A DNA stretch of 64,000 nucleotides from an uncultured Acidobacteriota bacterium (lineage in GTDB: Bacteria; Actinomycetota; Acidimicrobiia; Spongiisociales; ZC4RG35), in assembly GCA_963828465.1 (NCBI GenBank), contig CAWHEU010000018.1, forward strand, positions 192,001 through 256,000. Direction: 5' to 3'. A program made the translations under genes and the position numbers. The notes below the pieces were generated by a model. It ran no database searches, was not told the origin of the DNA, and worked only from the letters and a program-made list of their open reading frames with translations. Positions 8,919-17,262 of the stretch are shown one piece after another; the first letter of the stretch is position 1; each line of letters opens with the position of its first letter.

Positions 8919-10076
8919 GTGAACGAGCCGGTACCCAATGCGGTCTGGCATCGACGGCTGGCGATCGCCGCCGCCGCCCTGATTGCGGCCTTCTATCTCG
9001 GCTCGTTGTTCCTTTTCGGGAACACGGGGCCGTGGGGATGGGGCGACCTTCTGGGTTTCTCCCTTTGGATCTCGTTGTTCACCGTGGTCGGCGTGATCAT
9101 CGCCTTTCATCGACCGGGAAACCGGATCGCGTGGATCTGTCTCGGATTCAGTGGCGTTTGGGCTATTTGGATCTTCCTCGAAGGAGTCCTCGCGTATGAA
9201 TCCGCTAATCCCGGCTCCTTGAGCCGACCGGACCTGATCGTCGCATTGGCCTATCCGTTGTGGGTCCCAGGAGTAGGTCTGATCGGCTTTCTTCTCTTGT
9301 TGTTCCCCGACGGGCACCTTCCCTCGCCTCGCTGGCGGACTGTCGCATGGCTGCTCGGCGGCGACATTGCGCTCCTCACCCTCACCGGTTTCTTCCTTCC
9401 GGGAGTGGTCCAGGAGACGGAGTATGTGAACCCGCTGGGCATTGAAGCGTTGGAGACGTTCGATCAAGGGATACCCGGTTTCACCCTTGTGGTGATCCTC
9501 GTCTTGTGCATCGCGGCTGCGGCCGTCTCCGTTGTCATCCGCTATCGAACGGCGGTCGGGACCGAGCGCCTGCAACTCAAATGGATGATGGCGGCAGGTG
9601 TGGTGGCCGCAGGCGCCTATGCCCTCCTGTTCATATGGGACGACTTCAACATCCAACTCGTGTGGGCACTGATCCCGTTCGCCATCGGGATGTCCATGCA
9701 CCGGCACCACCTATATGAGATCGACCGACTGATCAGCCGGACCATCGTCTACGCGGTCGTGGTCGGGGCCTTGGCAATCGTGTTCGCCTCGGTCATCTTC
9801 GTCCTTCAGGAGGTGTCGCCGTTCCAGGAAGATTTGGCGGTGGCTGCATCGACTCTGGCGGCGGCCGCGGCTTTCAGCCCGGTTCGAAACAGGGTTCAGA
9901 AGCGGGTGGACCGCCGATTCAACCGGTCCCGCTACGACGCCGAGCGAGTCTCCGTCGAGTTCGCCAACGGTCTGCGCGACGAGACCGACTCCGGCCAGAT
10001 CGTGGACGGCTGGGCGGGCGTGGTGACCCGGACCATGCAGCCCACGAGCATGGGCATCTGGCTGAAGCCAGACTGA
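8919..10076 (+). CDS. Multi-pass membrane protein resembling the sensor part of actinobacterial histidine kinases, without a kinase domain
   Basis: Many hydrophobic helices; FPDGHLPSPRWR, ERLQLKW, LYEIDRLISRTIVY, VDRRFNRSRYDA. Confidence 0.75.
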   Translation: MNEPVPNAVWHRRLAIAAAALIAAFYLGSLFLFGNTGPWGWGDLLGFSLWISLFTVVGVIIAFHRPGNRIAWICLGFSGVWAIWIFLEGVLAYESANPGSLSRPDLIVALAYPLWVPGVGLIGFLLLLFPDGHLPSPRWRTVAWLLGGDIALLTLTGFFLPGVVQETEYVNPLGIEALETFDQGIPGFTLVVILVLCIAAAAVSVVIRYRTAVGTERLQLKWMMAAGVVAAGAYALLFIWDDFNIQLVWALIPFAIGMSMHRHHLYEIDRLISRTIVYAVVVGALAIVFASVIFVLQEVSPFQEDLAVAASTLAAAAAFSPVRNRVQKRVDRRFNRSRYDAERVSVEFANGLRDETDSGQIVDGWAGVVTRTMQPTSMGIWLKPD

Positions 10077-10079
10077 GAG

Positions 10080-10107
10080 TTGTCATCTCCTGTCAGACGC
10101 GTATGCT
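10080..10107 (+). promoter_or_regulatory. Putative sigma70-type promoter of the his operon
   Basis: TTGTCA (10080-10085), 16-nt spacer, TATGCT (10102-10107). Confidence 0.5.
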
Positions 10108-10117
10108 CGTGGACGAA

Positions 10118-10174
10118 ATGAACCGGCTCTTCGCCCACGGCCATCATCACCATCACCCTTCATGGGTCGGATGA
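10118..10174 (+). CDS. hisL: His operon leader peptide MNRLFAHGHHHHHPSWVG
   Basis: 18 aa with 6 His codons (5 consecutive, 10142-10156) directly upstream of hisG and of attenuator hairpins. Confidence 0.88.
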   Translation: MNRLFAHGHHHHHPSWVG

Positions 10175-10205
10175 CGATGGGCTGAGGCCGAGAAGCCACC
10201 AACGC

Positions 10206-10239
10206 AAACGCCGACCCAAGCGGTCGGCGTTTCTCGTTT
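10206..10239 (+). terminator. His attenuator terminator hairpin
   Basis: AAACGCCGACC-CAAGC-GGTCGGCGTTT then CTCGTTT; the 5' arm (CCGACCCA 10211-10218) can instead pair with TGGGTCGG 10163-10170. Confidence 0.8.
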
Positions 10240-10282
10240 ACGAGGGCGATATCCCGGCCGCACGGCGGGAAGGAACCCCGAC

Positions 10283-11152
10283 ATGAGCACCGAGCCGACG
10301 ATCCACCTGGCCCTCCCCAAGGGGCGAATGGAGACAGGTGTCTTCAACCTGCTCTCCGCCGCCGGCATCGAGCTGCACGTCGGACAACGGGGTTACCGAC
10401 CGGTGCTCTCCGAGCCCGGGTTCGAGGTGAAGCTCCTCAAACCACAGAACATCGTCGAGATGCTGGCGGTCGGGACCCGCGACATCGGTTTCGCCGGCGC
10501 CGACTGGGTGGCGGAGCAGCAAGCTGATTTGGTCGAGCTGCTCGACACCGGTCTCGACCCGGTTCGCATCGTGGCCGCCGCCTCGGAGAGCCTGCTCGAT
10601 GAGAGCGGCAATCTCCCGAATCGAAGACTCGTCGTGGCCAGTGAGTACGAGCGACTCACCCGGTCATGGATCGCCGATCGACAACTCGATGCCTCGTTTT
10701 TGCGCTCATACGGGGCAACGGAGGTCTTCCCGCCCGAGGACGCCGACGTCATCGTCGACAACACCGCCACCGGGGAGACCCTGGCCGCCAACGGGTTGGC
10801 CGTGGTCGATGAGCTGATGCCGTCTTCGACTCGCTTCTACGCGAGTCAGGGCGCCGTCGCCGACCCCGACAAGAAGAGCGCGATCGACGGGCTGGTGTTG
10901 AGCCTGCGCTCGGTGCTCGACGCGCGGAAGAGAGTCATGCTCGAGCTCAACGTGTCGCTCACTGACCTCGACGCCGTCATCGACGCATTGCCCGCCATGC
11001 GCGAGCCCACCGTGGCCACACTCCATGGTGGTGCCGGCATGGCGGTAAAGGCGGCCGTGCCCCGAAACGAGCTCCCCCGCCTGATCCCCCGGTTGAGGCA
11101 ACTCGGCGCCACTGACATCGCAGTCTCGAAGCTGGAGCAAATCGTCCCATGA
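10283..11152 (+). CDS. hisG: ATP phosphoribosyltransferase, long form
   Basis: LALPKGR, DIGFAGADWVAE, YGATE, IVDNTATGETL; C-terminal regulatory domain LPAMREPTV. Confidence 0.95.
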   Translation: MSTEPTIHLALPKGRMETGVFNLLSAAGIELHVGQRGYRPVLSEPGFEVKLLKPQNIVEMLAVGTRDIGFAGADWVAEQQADLVELLDTGLDPVRIVAAASESLLDESGNLPNRRLVVASEYERLTRSWIADRQLDASFLRSYGATEVFPPEDADVIVDNTATGETLAANGLAVVDELMPSSTRFYASQGAVADPDKKSAIDGLVLSLRSVLDARKRVMLELNVSLTDLDAVIDALPAMREPTVATLHGGAGMAVKAAVPRNELPRLIPRLRQLGATDIAVSKLEQIVP

Positions 11153-12821
11153 GCTCACCCGCTACCTATCTCCCGCCGGGCTTCGCCGTGCCCATCGATC
11201 TCGACCTCTCCAAGAACGAGGGGCGAAGCCGGGCTGAAGAGCTACTCGACGCGATAGACGACCCGCGGCGATTGGTCGGCCGTTACCCGGACACATCTCC
11301 CCTTCGCGCCCGGCTTGCCGCCCTGCACGAGGTATCCGAGGATCGCGTTCTGGTGACAGCCGGGGGCGATGATGCCCTTTCCCGTTGTTTTCTCGCCCGA
11401 GTCTCCGAGGGCGGCGAGGTGGTCAGCACCTATCCCACATTCGAGATGATTCCGCGCTACTCCGAGCAACGAGGGGCGAGGTTGTCGGAAGTGCCCTGGT
11501 GGACCGGCCCGTTCCCTGTGGATGAGGTATTGGCGGCTATCGGGGACGACACCGATGTCGTCTTCATCGTCTCGCCCAACAACCCGACGGGTGGTGTGGC
11601 GACCGAGATCGACCTCCTCAAGGTGGCCGGTGAAGCGCGATTGCTCGTTCTCGACGCCGCATATGTGGAGTTCGCCGAGTCCGACCCGACGCCCGCACTG
11701 CTCGAGCTGGACAACGTGGTCGTGACCCGGACCATGTCGAAGGCTTACGGGCTCGCTGGTCTCAGGGTCGGGTATCTGCTGGGGTCCCCGGAGCTCGTCG
11801 CGGCCATCGGGGCCTTCGGCAACCCGTACCCGGTCTCTGCACTCTCTGCCGCCCTGGCCGAGACCCGGCTGGACCGTCCCCTCTTGGAGCTGACGACATT
11901 CGTCGACGAAGTGAAGAGGGAACGGGTCGTCCTGACCGGCACCCTGACCGGTGTCGGCGCTCGCCCGCTCCCATCCGAGGGGAATTTCGTCCTCGCCGAA
12001 TGCGACGACGCCGACTGGGTGGTATCTGCTGCTGCCTCACTTGGCGTCGGATTGCGCCGATTCCCGAGCCGGCCCGGGCTCGAGTCGGCGGTCAGGATCA
12101 CCGTCCCCGGCGACGCCGAGGATTTCGACCGGCTGGTGACGACCCTCGGCTCGGTGTTCGACCCGCAGGCGATCATCTTCGATCTCGATGGGGTGATCGC
12201 CGATGTCAGCGGCTCCCAGATCCACGCCATCATCGAGACGGCCCGTAGCTTCGGTGTAGAAATCGCGCCCTCTGACATCGAAGCGGCCAAGACCGATGGC
12301 AACAGCAACGACGACTGGGAGCTGACCCGACGTTGTGTCTCGATCGGGGCGTGGACGCCCCGATCGAGGTGGTGACTGAGCGGTTCGAGAGCCTCTATCA
12401 AGGGAGTGGATCCGAGCCCGGGCTCAAGCTGGCGGAGACATCGCTGGTTGATACCGGGACCTGGCAACGGTGGGCCGCTAGGAGGCATCTAGGCATCGTC
12501 ACCGGGCGCCCTCGCTCCGATGCGGTCGAGTTCCTCGAGCGTTTCGGCCTCACCGAAGGGCTCGCTGCCCTGGTGACACGGGAGGATGCCCCGCTCAAAC
12601 CTGACCCGGCGCCGGTGCTGAAGGCTCTCGAGATCATGGGAGTGAACCGGGCCTGGATGCTCGGGGATACGCCCGACGATCTGGCGGCGGCACGGGGAGC
12701 CGGAGTTGTGCCCATCGGGGTCATCGCACCGGGCGACGACCCAACACGAGCCAGGGAACGCCTGCGGCCCGCGGCCCGAATTCTCGACAAGACGATCGAC
12801 CTGGAGGAGATGCTGCCATGA
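11149..12821 (+). CDS. hisC: Histidinol-phosphate aminotransferase fused to a HAD phosphatase (one base missing near 12332)
   Basis: [30 protein letters not shown]; HAD motif I FDLDGV lies in the first ORF and motifs VTGR, KPDP and GDTPDD lie in ORF 12333-12821; the junction reads ELTRR|LCLDRG. Confidence 0.88.
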
Positions 12822-13402
12822 CACGACGATCAGAGATCCAACGTGAAACCACCGAGGTCACCATTCGTGGCCACCTCGACATCGACGGGACCGGTGCCTC
12901 AGACATCAAGACGGGACTTGGCTTTCTCGACCACATGCTGGCGGCCCTGGCAAAGCACGGGCGATTCGATCTGACCCTCACCGCCACCGGCGATACCGAC
13001 GTGGACGACCACCACACAGTCGAGGACTGCGGCATCGTCCTCGGGCGCGCCTTCGACGAGGCACTCGGGGATCGCACCGGCATCGCCCGTTTCGGATATG
13101 GCTATGCCCCACTCGACGAGTCGCTGAGCCGGGCGGTCGTCGACCTCTCCGGACGCCCCTGGCCCGAGGTGTCGATCGATTTCACCCGGGAAACCATCGG
13201 CGACGTTGCCACCGAGAACATCATCCACTTCCTCAGGTCATTCGCCATCGAGGGTCGGATGGCGCTTCACGTCGACCTGTTGCGCGGAGACAACGACCAC
13301 CACAAGGCCGAGTCGGCGTTCAAGGCACTGGCGGTCGCCCTTCGAGCAGCGGTGGCCGCCGACGGCGACAGTGTGCCCAGCACCAAGGGAACGCTGACTT
13401 GA
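12818..13402 (+). CDS. hisB: Imidazoleglycerol-phosphate dehydratase (monofunctional)
   Basis: [26 protein letters not shown]. Confidence 0.97.
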
Positions 13403-14007
13403 GACTGGTGACCATCGTCCCCACCGGGACGGCCAACACCGCTTCTGTCGTCGCTGCGCTGACCCGCCTCGGGGCGGCGGTCGAAGAGGCGGCTTCGGCC
13501 GGCGACGTCGAGTCCTCTCCGGGCGTGGTCCTCCCCGGGGTGGGCGCCTTCGGGTCCGCCATGGGCAGGATCGACTCCCTGGGTCTCGCCGCCGCGATTC
13601 GGGGAAGGATCGAAGTCAATCGACCCACCCTTGCAGTGTGCGTCGGGATGCAACTCCTCAGCCGGCACAGCGAGGAGAGCCCGGGAGCCACCGGGCTGAA
13701 GGTGCTCGAAGAGACGGTGGGCCGTTTTGGTGACGGAGTGACGGTGCCCCAGATGGGTTGGAACCGCGTCGAGCCCGGCCCCGGATCCCGGTTTGTCGAG
13801 TCGGGCTGGGCCTACTTCGCCAACTCTTATCGGATCGACCGGCTCCCCGAGGGATGGGTTGGCAGCAGCACCGACCACGGTGGCGAGTTCGTCTCCGCAC
13901 TGGAGAAAGGTGATGTCCTCGCCTGTCAGTTCCACCCCGAGCTCTCCGGTGAATGGGGCGCCCGCCTCCTCGACCGCTGGCTCCAAAGAGTGGAGACGGC
14001 GGCATGA
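13399..14007 (+). CDS. hisH: IGP synthase glutaminase subunit
   Basis: [26 protein letters not shown]. Confidence 0.95.
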
Positions 14008-14759
14008 CTCTGGCATCACGCGTCATTCCGTGTCTCGACATCAAAGACGGGCGTGTCGTCAAGGGGATCAAGTTCCAGGGTTTGCGGGACGCAGGCGATC
14101 CGGTCGAATGCGCCGGCCTGTACGAGCGCCAGGGCGCCGATGAGATCGTGCTCCTGGATGTGTCGGCCACGCCCGAGGGCAGGGGCCACGCGCTGGAAAC
14201 GGTGCAGGCAGTCCGCTCCGTGCTCTCCGTCCCCCTGGCGGTCGGCGGAGGGGTGAAATCGCCCGACGATGCCGGCCGTCTGCTCGAGGCTGGCGCCGAC
14301 AAGGTTGGGGTCAACACAGCTGCCGTGTCACGGCCCGGGCTCATCGGTGAGATTGCGGAGAGATTCGGGACCCAGTGCACTGTGCTGGCCGTCGACGCCG
14401 CCGCCGGCGAAGCGGGCTGGGAAGTGGTGGTGGAGAGCGGCAGGAAGAGGACCGGGCTCGATGTCGTCGAGTGGTGCCGAAAGGCGGTGGCGATCGGTGC
14501 CGGCGAGATCCTCCTCACGAGTTGGGACCGCGATGGGACCAGATCGGGCTACGACCTCGACCTGATCACGTCGGTCTCGTCTGTGGTGACCGTCCCCGTG
14601 ATCGCCTCGGGTGGCGCCGACCGGCCGGGCCATCTGGTCGCGGCGATCGAGGCAGGAGCCTCGGCTGCACTGATCGCCTCGATCCTTCATGACGGCGACA
14701 CGACGGTGGGAGAACTGAAAGCGGCGTTGCGTGAGGCCGGGATAGTGGTGCGGCCGTGA
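14004..14759 (+). CDS. hisF: IGP synthase cyclase subunit
   Basis: RVIPCLDIKDGRVVKG, GEILLTSWDRDGT, VIASGGA; start reassigned to ATG 14004. Confidence 0.96.
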   Translation: MTLASRVIPCLDIKDGRVVKGIKFQGLRDAGDPVECAGLYERQGADEIVLLDVSATPEGRGHALETVQAVRSVLSVPLAVGGGVKSPDDAGRLLEAGADKVGVNTAAVSRPGLIGEIAERFGTQCTVLAVDAAAGEAGWEVVVESGRKRTGLDVVEWCRKAVAIGAGEILLTSWDRDGTRSGYDLDLITSVSSVVTVPVIASGGADRPGHLVAAIEAGASAALIASILHDGDTTVGELKAALREAGIVVRP

Positions 14760-16021
14760 TCATCCCATCCATCGATATATCCGGCGGCCAGGCGGTCCAA
14801 CTGGTGGGTGGCGAGACGCCGGCCATCGAGGCCGGTGACCCACTCCCCATCCTGGAGCGCTTCGGCCTAGTCGGCGAGGTCGCGGTGGTCGATATCGATG
14901 CCGCTCGTGGCGAAGGCGACAACGCTGAGCAGATCACCGAGCTGTGCCGCCGGGGCCGTATCCGGGTAGGGGGCGGGATTCGGGACCTGGCCGCGGCCAG
15001 GCGATGGCTGGACCTGGGCGCTGAGAAGATCGTGATCGGGACCGCGGCAACACCGGACCTGCTCGGCGAGCTGCCCCGCGACCGTGTGGTCGTCGCGCTC
15101 GACTCGCGAGATGGCGAGGTGTTGATCCATGGATGGCGACAGGGGACGGGGACCGGCGTGTTGGAGCGAGTCCAGCAACTGAGGGGGCTCTGCGGTGGGT
15201 TCCTGATCACCTTTGTCGAGCGGGAAGGCCAGCTGGCCGGGACCGACATCGATCGGGCCGCGACGGTGATCCAGGCTGCGTCACCGGCGAGAGTCACAAT
15301 CGCAGGAGGCATCACCACCCCCGAGGAGGTGGCCGAGCTCGACCGGATGGGCGCCGACGCGCAGGTGGGCATGGCCCTGTATGGCGGGCAGCTCACCCTG
15401 GCTGGATCACTCGCCGCAATGATGCATTCCGACCGCCCCGACGGCCTATGGCCAACAGTCGTGGTCGACGAGCTGGGGACCGCCCTGGGGCTCGTCTATT
15501 CCAGTTCGGAGAGCCTGGACCGGGCGTTGGAGAAGCGGCAGGGCATCTATCACAGCCGCACACGCGGCATCTGGGTCAAGGGTGAGACGTCAGGCGCCAC
15601 CCAGGACCTCCTGGCGGTTGACATCGACTGTGATCGGGACACGCTGCGCTTCACCGTCAGGCAGAGCGAGCCAGGGTTCTGCCACACCAGCGACCGATCC
15701 TGTTGGGGTGAGGACTACGGCGTGGGGCGGCTGGCGAGACGTCTCGGGCAAATCGCCCTCTCCGATGACTCCGAATCGAACACACGAAAGCTCTTCGACG
15801 ATCCAGACCTGCTCGCAGACAAGTTGAATGAAGAGGCTGCGGAGTTGGGAGCGGCTCAAACCACGGAAGGTGTGATCCACGAGGCCGCCGACCTCCTCTA
15901 TTTCCTCCTGGTGAGGGCTCGTGCCGCAGGTGTGGGTCTCGATGAAGTGGCCAGGGAGCTCGACCGGCGGGAGCGCCGAGCCACCCGTCGGCCGATGACG
16001 ACGAAGGAGAGTCTGCCATGA
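14756..16021 (+). CDS. hisA: HisA-HisI-HisE fusion (ProFAR isomerase / PR-AMP cyclohydrolase / PR-ATP pyrophosphatase)
   Basis: IIPSID..G.AVQLVGG and VGGGIR (HisA); WVKGETSG, DCDRD, FCH..SCW (HisI); KLNEEAAEL, EAADLLYF (HisE). Confidence 0.9.
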   Translation: MIIPSIDISGGQAVQLVGGETPAIEAGDPLPILERFGLVGEVAVVDIDAARGEGDNAEQITELCRRGRIRVGGGIRDLAAARRWLDLGAEKIVIGTAATPDLLGELPRDRVVVALDSRDGEVLIHGWRQGTGTGVLERVQQLRGLCGGFLITFVEREGQLAGTDIDRAATVIQAASPARVTIAGGITTPEEVAELDRMGADAQVGMALYGGQLTLAGSLAAMMHSDRPDGLWPTVVVDELGTALGLVYSSSESLDRALEKRQGIYHSRTRGIWVKGETSGATQDLLAVDIDCDRDTLRFTVRQSEPGFCHTSDRSCWGEDYGVGRLARRLGQIALSDDSESNTRKLFDDPDLLADKLNEEAAELGAAQTTEGVIHEAADLLYFLLVRARAAGVGLDEVARELDRRERRATRRPMTTKESLP

Positions 16022-17262
16022 GATCGCTGCCCCGCACCGAGGTCCTGCCTGCTGTTGTTCGCCGCCCTGCCGACTTCGATACAGGGGATCTCATCGGCGA
16101 GATCATCGAGGACGTGCGTGCGGTCGGTGAGCCTGCGATTCGCCGGTTTTCCGAGCACTTCGGCGACCTGGCCCCGGGTGATCAGATCGCTCACGACCGG
16201 GCAGACCTCAAGAAGGCACTCGATCGGATTGGCCCCGACGAGCGCCGGACTTTGGAGAGCGTCGCTGCGCGGATCAGGCATTTCGCCGAGGCTCAGCGGG
16301 AGGCCCTTGTAGACGTCGACGTCGAGGTGGCTGGAGGCCGGGCCGGGCATCGCTGGGTACCGGTGTCATCGGTGGGCGCCTATGCGCCGGGAGGGCGATA
16401 TCCCCTGCCCTCCTCGGTCCTGATGACTGTGATACCGGCATGGGTCGCAGGAGTGAAGACGGTCTGGGTCGCCTCACCACGCCCGACCGACGTCACCCTG
16501 GCCGCAGCCGCCGTCGCCGGGGCCGACGGCCTGCTCGCGATCGGTGGCGCCCAGGCCATCGCCAGCCTGGCCTTTGGCGTTCTGTCTCCTGCCTGTGATC
16601 TCATCGTGGGCCCGGGGAACAAGTATGTAACAGCCGCGAAGAGGGCGCTCTTTGGTGAGGTTGGGATAGATGGCCTTGCCGGCCCGAGCGAGATCCTGGT
16701 CGTCGCCGACGACCGGGCCGACCCCGCGTTGGTCGCCGCCGACCTGCTTGCCCAGGCGGAGCACGACATCGACGCCCTGCCACTCCTGGTGACGACCAGC
16801 TTGCGTCTGGCCAATGACGTGGATCACCAGATCGAGCTTCAGCTTGCCGACCTGCCAACCTCGTCGGTTGCCCGGCAAGCACTGACCAATGGCTTCTCCC
16901 TCGTGGTCGGTTCGTTGGATGAAGCAGTGTCCGCTGCCGAGCTGGTGGCGCCAGAGCATCTGGCCCTGCACGTCGAGCAGCCGGAGGATCTGTTGGGGAA
17001 GCTCACGTCTTACGGCTCGGTGTTCCTCGGTGGGCGGAGCGCCGAAGCGTTCGCCGACTATGGAGTCGGCCCCAACCACGTTCTCCCCACTGCGGGCGGG
17101 GCCAGGTACCAGTCCGGGCTCTCGGTGATGACATTCCTCAAGGCTCCGACCTGGTCACGGCTCGACGACCCAGCGGAGTTGATCGAGGACACGGTCCTCC
17201 TCGCCCGCCTCGAGGGTCTCGAGGGTCATGCGCGCGCCGCGATGATCCGTGTCGAGCCGTAG
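16018..17262 (+). CDS. hisD: Histidinol dehydrogenase
   Basis: YAPGG, GPGNKYV, AGPSEI, LLAQAEHD, APEHL, GPNHVLPT. Confidence 0.96.
   Translation: MRSLPRTEVLPAVVRRPADFDTGDLIGEIIEDVRAVGEPAIRRFSEHFGDLAPGDQIAHDRADLKKALDRIGPDERRTLESVAARIRHFAEAQREALVDVDVEVAGGRAGHRWVPVSSVGAYAPGGRYPLPSSVLMTVIPAWVAGVKTVWVASPRPTDVTLAAAAVAGADGLLAIGGAQAIASLAFGVLSPACDLIVGPGNKYVTAAKRALFGEVGIDGLAGPSEILVVADDRADPALVAADLLAQAEHDIDALPLLVTTSLRLANDVDHQIELQLADLPTSSVARQALTNGFSLVVGSLDEAVSAAELVAPEHLALHVEQPEDLLGKLTSYGSVFLGGRSAEAFADYGVGPNHVLPTAGGARYQSGLSVMTFLKAPTWSRLDDPAELIEDTVLLARLEGLEGHARAAMIRVEP

Follow-up and report, generated by a model that had tools for sequence, protein, structure and literature searches.

The leader and the his operon

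We have analysed the region upstream of a histidine biosynthesis (his) operon in a stretch of 64,000 nucleotides (nt) from an uncultured bacterium (NCBI GenBank assembly GCA_963828465.1, contig CAWHEU010000018.1, positions 192,001 to 256,000 of the forward strand). This whole stretch is called the window here, and positions are counted from its first letter. The record is titled uncultured Acidobacteriota, and its GTDB lineage runs through Actinomycetota and the class Acidimicrobiia to the order Spongiisociales; the genome comprises 3.07 Mb in 29 contigs and is 92% complete. Between a promoter-like site and hisG lies a short open reading frame (ORF) rich in His codons, followed by RNA segments that can fold in mutually exclusive ways. 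Based on its anatomy and conservation, we consider that this element is very likely a classical ribosome-mediated transcription attenuator sensing charged tRNA-His. An earlier note on this DNA had read the locus in the same manner, and its individual claims are taken up below together with the results that bear on them.

The leader ORF begins with an ATG at 10118 on the plus strand and runs for 18 codons to a TGA at 10172-10174, giving the product MNRLFAHGHHHHHPSWVG. His is encoded by six of the 18 codons, one at 10136-10138 and five in succession at 10142-10156. The ORF list also gives the leader within a 23-residue ORF, whose start is the ATG inside the -10 box. The leader ATG lies 10 nt past the -10 hexamer, and a Shine-Dalgarno sequence is absent 5' of it. 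When we scanned 9500-11000 for promoters, the TTGTCA/TATGCT pair was the sole match, against a mean of 0.2 in shuffled sequences. A run of five His codons is not rare by itself, as the 3.07-Mb genome contains six (CAY)5 runs versus four for the reversed control pattern. Accordingly, the case for more than chance rests on the context of the leader and on its conservation.

In terms of context, a complete his operon (10283-17262, plus strand) follows 108 nt behind the leader ORF, as seen from NCBIfam matches and ORF coordinates. The earlier note had called this a probable actinobacterial his operon. The operon is complete from hisG through hisD, and the host DNA belongs to Acidimicrobiia, but the operon is not of the usual actinobacterial type, its HisG being at most 42% identical to that of the other sampled Acidimicrobiia.

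The RNA between the leader and hisG can adopt competing folds. TGGGTCGG at 10163-10170, which sits 2-9 nt before the leader stop codon, is the exact reverse complement of CCGACCCA at 10211-10218. The minimum-free-energy fold of 10110-10285 (z = -3.3 versus shuffles) contains a GC-rich hairpin of 11 base pairs (10206-10216/10222-10232), which is followed by CTCGTTT and separated from hisG by 50 nt. The interrupted U tract of this terminator, UUUCUCGUUU at 10230-10239, begins in the last three bases of the 3' arm. In the same fold, the leader coding region, His codons included, is paired with 10164-10197, and the His codons themselves pair with 10170-10180. The calculated energies are -35.7 kcal/mol for hairpin 1:2 (10118-10200), -21.0 kcal/mol for the antiterminator fold of the stalled state (10158-10221) and -18.3 to -18.9 kcal/mol for the terminator. 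With these observations, the anatomy given in the earlier note is borne out in the sequence: the 18-residue ORF with its five consecutive His codons, the TTGTCA/TATGCT promoter ahead of it with an ATG about 10 nt from the -10 box, the exact complementarity of the two 8-nt segments, the 11-bp hairpin with CTCGTTT behind it, and the ability of the His codons to pair with a stretch at 10172-10180. The features of the locus are collected in Table 1.

Table 1. Features of the leader region and of the his operon, in window coordinates
Feature	Positions	Strand	Remarks
Promoter-like site	10080-10107	+	-35 TTGTCA (10080-10085), 16-nt spacer, -10 TATGCT (10102-10107)
Leader peptide ORF (predicted)	10118-10174	+	Putative regulatory His codons 10136-10138, 10142-10156
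Hairpin 1:2 (predicted anti-antiterminator, possibly pause hairpin)	10125-10197	+	His-codon stretch 10142-10158 pairs with 10164-10180 and onward
Segment 2, predicted antiterminator 5' strand	10163-10170	+	UGGGUCGG, final leader codons (Trp-Val-Gly)
Segment 3	10206-10218	+	Terminator 5' arm, 10206-10216; 10211-10218 pairs alternatively with segment 2
Segment 4	10222-10239	+	Terminator 3' arm, 10222-10232, then U-rich tail
Shine-Dalgarno-like sequence of hisG	10267-10274	+	GGGAAGGA; 8 nt before hisG ATG; outside terminator
hisG, long form	10283-11152	+	NCBIfam and ORF
hisC fused to HAD phosphatase	11149-12821	+	Frameshifted in this assembly
hisB	12818-13402	+	
hisH	13399-14007	+	
hisF	13953-14759	+	
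hisA::hisIE fusion	14756-16021	+	NCBIfam and ORF
hisD, last gene	16018-17262	+	

Conservation and covariation

Orthologous HisG proteins, defined by an identity of at least 61%, were found at 28 loci among 41 relatives. Leaving out one unpublished genome (G018), an ORF with a His run lies directly 5' of hisG in 27/27 orthologous loci of the order, and G018 has one too. On the other hand, the two loci with another type of HisG (31% identity) are without a His-run leader. Among the best 80 loci from the species collection, 52 carry a His-rich short ORF upstream, and the 28 that do not are mostly labelled Alphaproteobacteria and Myxococcota.

We aligned 50 distinct leaders from Acidimicrobiia (alignment A1). 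The leader ATG is invariant in all 50. Most His codons are conserved to at least 90% at their first two positions, and in four of five the third position varies, as expected from a coding constraint that acts on CAY. All recovered leaders have an open frame, with four to eight His codons (61 of the 61 distinct leaders). In three of the 50 (L008, L011 and L015), a 1-nt insertion shifts the frame and the stop codon lies 12 nt further downstream, with the GGGTCGGATGA motif intact. Judged from these alignments, it is the RNA rather than the peptide that is kept at the leader tail.

The pairings were scored by the share of alignment cells that form a standard pair, and controls were obtained by sliding the partner strand. 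In A1, the terminator pairing 3:4 is formed in 92.4% of cells (slid controls 29-44%) and the antiterminator pairing 2:3 in 91.1% (26-56%). Hairpin 1:2 as a whole reaches 72.6% (33-50%), with 89% in its inner helix and a weaker outer part at 65%. Considering that the core pairs hardly vary within the class, we built a covariance model, R1, for aligning more distant leaders. R1 was made from 61 leaders using the 1:2 and 3:4 pairs only, so that the alignment A3, in which 74 R1 matches from several phyla were aligned to it, was not fitted to the 2:3 pairs. In A3, the antiterminator 2:3 is nevertheless paired in 94.4% of cells versus 19-54% in the slid controls, and the terminator 3:4 in 98.5% versus 21-48%, with 18 cells showing compensatory changes.

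In A3, covariation with each of the two alternative partners is seen for one column of segment 3. Against segment 2 this column forms UA in 51 sequences, CG in 7, UG in 6 and other combinations in 9, and against segment 4 it forms AU in 54, GC in 11 and GU in 9. The covariation of the same base with two mutually exclusive partners is the signature predicted for an attenuator switch. The earlier note had proposed two comparative checks, one for conserved poly-His ORFs upstream of hisG in relatives and the other for covarying hairpins. Both came out in favour of its reading, the first with the 27/27 loci and the second with a terminator and a competing pairing that are each kept in more than 90% of cells and covary in A3.

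We also folded each leader separately, using the RNA that would remain accessible with a ribosome at the second codon of the His run and 200 shuffles for each sequence. In this stalled state, all 61 distinct leaders pair at least 6 nt of the terminator 5' arm with upstream RNA, and in 47 of them the fold is matched by at most 10 of the 200 shuffles.

Proposed switch and competing explanations

The components of a classical attenuator thus occur together at this locus. A short ORF, predicted to be translated and with clustered codons for the regulated amino acid, lies between a promoter-like site (10080-10107) and the matching biosynthetic operon (hisG at 10283). An intrinsic terminator follows the ORF, with the caveat of its interrupted U tract. 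The pairing of 10163-10170 with 10211-10218, which excludes the terminator and would be masked by a ribosome at the stop codon, is kept and covarying, and the upstream hairpin 1:2 would sequester the antiterminator strand.

From the anatomy, conservation and covariation described above, we infer the following histidine response, ribosome positions and transcript ends. Transcription would start at the leader ATG or a few bases before it, and a ribosome would translate the 18-codon leader as RNA polymerase proceeds. When His-tRNA is plentiful, the ribosome would reach the TGA at 10172 and cover segment 2 as well as the 3' side of hairpin 1:2. In this case, the terminator hairpin (10206-10232) could form, and transcription would end within the U-rich tail, at about 10233-10240. 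Under a shortage of His-tRNA, the ribosome would stall at the His codons (10136-10156), hairpin 1:2 would be melted, and the free segment 2 would pair with 10211-10218 before the terminator 3' arm is made, allowing read-through into hisG and the seven-gene operon. In the state where the leader is not translated, hairpin 1:2 would hold segment 2, and termination would be the default. The earlier note had proposed that a stalled ribosome frees 10163-10170 and that a ribosome at the TGA covers it, a logic with which the anatomy and the conserved, covarying pairings are consistent.

RNA libraries offered a further view of the leader. Seven metatranscriptome runs contained 5-8% of the sampled words, and for each of the four runs that were examined as contigs, contigs map to the leader. 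In run X5, two contigs end within the U tract, at 10237; such contigs cannot show starts, ends or levels, the libraries may contain DNA, and a conserved leader is easier to match than coding sequence.

Several points weigh against the attenuator. In terms of the terminator, a strict scan listed no site at the leader because the U tract is interrupted, and two RNA contigs (10114-10308 and 10124-10278) cross the hairpin. In terms of the antiterminator, the fold from 10167 onward no longer pairs the terminator 5' arm, and a ribosome that has reached the last His codon would overlap segment 2 in part, so that productive stalls must be at earlier His codons. The 2:3 helix contains a C-A mismatch in L050 and L058. 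The stalled-state fold is matched by more than 20 of the 200 shuffles in 9/61 leaders, and by 11 of 200 in the window itself; also, kinship alone can let sequences beat shuffle controls without structure. The core pairs are near-invariant within Acidimicrobiia, and most of the covariation comes from few distant sequences. Some RNA contigs begin 5' of the -10 box (at 10080 and 10094) and do not support the proposed transcription start. Finally, the host is an uncultured soil actinobacterium, and the interpretation rests on comparison.

The imperfect U tract and the contigs that cross the terminator could also mean that leader translation controls hisG by another route, such as Rho-dependent polarity, translational coupling or masking of the ribosome-binding site, and that the hairpin is an element of stability or processing. 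A second hairpin, predicted at about 10253-10269 in the minimum-free-energy fold and ending directly ahead of the hisG Shine-Dalgarno sequence, would fit with such control. However, the Acidimicrobiia alignment retains the GC-rich stem with UUUCUCGUU behind it throughout, and a stem with a U-rich tail recurs in other phyla. The hisG Shine-Dalgarno sequence lies 35 nt 3' of the terminator without overlapping it, and the hairpin near it is not retained in several relatives of the same genus, as judged by eye from the sequences. On this route, it would also be hard to explain why a pairing in specific competition with the terminator 5' arm should be under selection. Accordingly, we consider it improbable.

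We also considered an untranslated RNA switch that binds a factor directly, the factor being a protein, a small ligand or, in the manner of a T-box, uncharged tRNA-His, with the His codons as a by-product of the structure. On the one hand, the RNA motifs GGGUCGG and ACGCCGACCC are better conserved than the peptide tail, the three leaders with a shifted frame have kept the RNA, and a T-box has been proposed for the his operon of Corynebacterium glutamicum (PMC3896937). On the other hand, neither the T-box covariance model nor a riboswitch family matched 9900-10500 at E up to 10 or reached its gathering score anywhere in the window. The invariant ATG and the open frames with four to eight His codons are those of a translated leader, and the His codons, with varying third positions and conserved first and second positions, follow a coding constraint and not a fixed RNA sequence. 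We therefore regard a switch of this kind as quite improbable, and prefer the ribosome-mediated attenuator.

Whether the attenuator ribosome loads in the usual manner is a separate question. Upstream of the leader ATG, 49 of the 50 distinct Acidimicrobiia loci have a TANNNT hexamer whose end is 8-11 nt away, the distance being exactly 10 nt in 36. This spacing holds despite varied hexamers (TATGCT, TAAGCT, TAGGCT, TAGCGT and others) and an often unrelated -35 region; in some loci of other phyla it is 6-9 nt. In bacteria, the transcription start is expected some 7 nt downstream of the -10 hexamer. With the observed spacing, the 5' untranslated region would be 0-4 nt long, leaving no room for a Shine-Dalgarno sequence. 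Accordingly, the leader transcript may be leaderless or near-leaderless, a view that we put forward tentatively. One RNA contig carries 54 unlike letters before 10114. If the start is as proposed, a 70S ribosome would load on the 5' end as soon as it emerges, which would keep ribosome and polymerase in step by a distinct route, and the locus would be a natural system for studying transcription-translation coupling without a ribosome-binding site.

Relation to known systems, distribution and origin

The proposed mechanism is the textbook one, and as far as our literature search shows this is the first case for his genes in Actinomycetota, since no published his leader-peptide attenuator was found for this phylum. 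Like the enterobacterial hisL, the window has a short ORF with a His run directly before hisG, followed by exclusive hairpins and an intrinsic terminator, with the position of the ribosome as the deciding factor. The peptides are also alike in having 16-18 residues and 'HP' after the His run, a feature of the Escherichia coli hisL peptide. However, the window RNA is not detectably homologous to hisL. It has five or six His codons instead of seven and a simpler four-segment layout, its leader lacks a Shine-Dalgarno sequence and has the -10 box 10 nt before the ATG, and the host is a high-GC actinobacterium. The E. coli his leader peptide is given as 18 amino acids with seven His (PMC3896937).

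The earlier note had also proposed a comparison with the Rfam His_leader model, and here the leader fell below the threshold. In a search of 9900-10500 with E up to 10, Thr_leader scored 20 bits and His_leader (RF00514) 15.4 bits (E 6.4). As the gathering score of RF00514 is 49, we rejected membership in this family, and no Rfam family reaches its gathering score in the whole 64-kb window.

A published survey puts His attenuators in Proteobacteria and assigns T-boxes to Firmicutes and Actinobacteria (PMC9413887). It also lists candidate His attenuators missed by RF00514 in three Firmicutes groups, namely the Bacillus cereus group, Peptostreptococcaceae and Erysipelotrichales (PMC9413887). In bacilli, a His leader has been placed before hisS and hisZ (PMC2965389). 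The Firmicutes candidates resemble the window leader in the comparative logic by which they were found, in their consecutive His codons (three to five there) and in being missed by RF00514; they differ in phylum and, as judged from their descriptions, in sequence family. For Actinobacteria, Seliverstov et al. (2005) described leader-peptide attenuators for trp, ilvB, trpS/leuS and cys, and they saw no conserved RNA structure upstream of the histidine operons of the Actinobacteria then available (PMC1262725). These attenuators share the phylum and the leader-peptide RNA control of amino acid genes with the window but control other amino acids. In Corynebacterium glutamicum AS019, the proposed T-box of hisD comes explicitly with no leader ORF (PMC3896937). 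It resembles the window in that his genes of Actinomycetota would be regulated by a choice between terminator and antiterminator. The two differ in that the T-box would sense tRNA directly, while the window, which has no match to a T-box, contains a leader ORF. The remark in the earlier note that no his leader had been described for Actinobacteria therefore agrees with PMC1262725 and with our literature searches. Its further suggestion of an undescribed regulator in this lineage stands in so far as we found no published his case in Actinomycetota, but bins of several other phyla have leaders of this same design.

This wider distribution became apparent from searches with R1. The genome of the window has one true match, at 127.7 bits. 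A second match in the same genome (C2:153386-153511, 21 bits, E 0.04) was rejected as a chance match; it lies antisense in a membrane-protein ORF and overlaps one of the six (CAY)5 runs, and neither a short ORF nor hisG is close to it. An evenly drawn sample of 151 Acidimicrobiia genomes gave 12 strong matches (E <= 2e-9), all in the order of the window. Weak matches in G042, G066, G100 and G128 (E about 1e-4) were set aside as false positives, as no His-run ORF or hisG adjoins them. A HisG search of the same 151 genomes showed that the 12 genomes matched by R1 are exactly those with a HisG at least 62% identical to that of the window. In another 89, HisG does not exceed 42% identity and the leader is not matched, and 50 have no HisG match. 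Accordingly, leader and HisG type are linked, with R1 matching 12/12 genomes that carry this hisG type and 0/139 of the other sampled Acidimicrobiia. The leader also stays with hisG in several relatives whose upstream neighbourhood differs.

A His-rich small peptide with a function of its own, such as metal binding, that lies beside an ordinary terminator and next to hisG by chance would fit the fair conservation of MNRLFAH.HHHHHP.RVG within the order, but it is highly improbable considering this linkage to one hisG type across differing neighbourhoods, the retention across phyla of just the His run and the RNA-pairing tail, and the similar rate at which five-codon His runs arise by chance elsewhere in the genome.

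As a separate observation on the class sample, a HisG match was found in 0/35 genomes of family f16, whose genomes are about 1 Mb in size.

The attenuator family could also be recognised outside the loci from which R1 was made. Eight further genomes of the class that lie outside its training set match at E <= 1e-13 (those named are G086, G041, G078, G082, G116, G124 and G174), while the G036 locus, which was matched at the same place, was part of R1. Among 34 held-out loci, R1 matches six at E <= 9e-8. One of these belongs to Acidimicrobiia, and the other five are labelled Eisenbacteria, Planctomycetaceae, Thermodesulfobacteriota, Myxococcota and "Deltaproteobacteria". Each of the six precedes hisG, and its His-codon ORF ends in a ..R-V/A-G tail encoded by GGGYCGG. 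R1 also matches leaders before homologous hisG genes labelled Gemmatimonadota and Planctomycetota. In a sample of 151 Actinomycetota genomes, no R1 match was found beyond the genome of the window and one genome of the same family. With significant matches at loci outside the training set, the sequences indicate that the RNA is an uncatalogued family, linked to hisG and common to several phyla.

In terms of origin, the HisG of the window is 96-98% identical to proteins from records titled as metagenome-assembled genomes (MAGs) of Acidimicrobiia and 61-68% identical to proteins of other phyla. We built a HisG tree by a quick method with 82 rows, after removal of the duplicate loci of the genus (L002-L028), the locus of the unpublished genome, all fragments of less than 250 residues and identical sequences. 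The Acidimicrobiia sequences form one clade (38 rows; Shimodaira-Hasegawa-like approximate likelihood ratio test, SH-aLRT, 91), and its sister is a Planctomycetaceae row (95). This clade is nested among Myxococcota, Planctomycetota and Gemmatimonadota, a poorly resolved group in which many members have leaders, and is far from the other HisG type of Acidimicrobiia. Based on the HisG split and the R1 matches across phyla, the his operon and its leader have probably entered this clade of Acidimicrobiia by horizontal transfer. It is possible, although we hold the view with reserve, that a leaderless sensor ORF, its promoter and the switch moved among at least five phyla as a cassette with the compact his operon, displacing the native actinobacterial hisG here.

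The attenuation of his genes is a founding example of RNA-based gene control, yet Rfam catalogues it for gamma-proteobacteria only. The locus and its relatives in other phyla define an RNA family that can be added to Rfam and to annotation pipelines, which now leave the leader ORF and the switch unannotated. Also, the locus offers an example of a regulator that would move between phyla together with its operon.

Some MAG records titled 'uncultured Acidobacteriota' (several of L031-L054), Armatimonadetes (L078) and Cyanobacteria (L081) carry HisG and leaders. All of these mislabelled-looking records except L081 group with Acidimicrobiia in the HisG tree, and their depositor labels look unreliable.

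Several features of the neighbourhood were noted in addition. The gene 5' of the leader (8919-10076) encodes an apparently multi-pass membrane protein of 385 residues without an NCBIfam match and ends 4 nt before the -35 hexamer; a convergent icmF-like gene lies 3' of the his operon. The HAD domain of the hisC fusion is TIGR01548-like and probably serves as the pathway's histidinol-phosphate phosphatase. The hisC::HAD fusion of the window is split over two frames that overlap at 12333-12375. Four relatives (L130-L133) have it as a single ORF, and the window therefore carries either an assembly error or a real frameshift. The hisA::hisIE fusion is an ORF of 421 residues, of which 2-222 match HisA and 221-408 match HisIE. 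Through these two fusions, a very compact operon of seven genes spans the whole pathway. The second small hairpin, CCCGGCCGCACGGCGGG at about 10253-10269, ends just before the hisG Shine-Dalgarno sequence (region 10253-10274) and might modulate hisG translation; it is present in many species of the genus and differs in L010, L012, L014 and L028.

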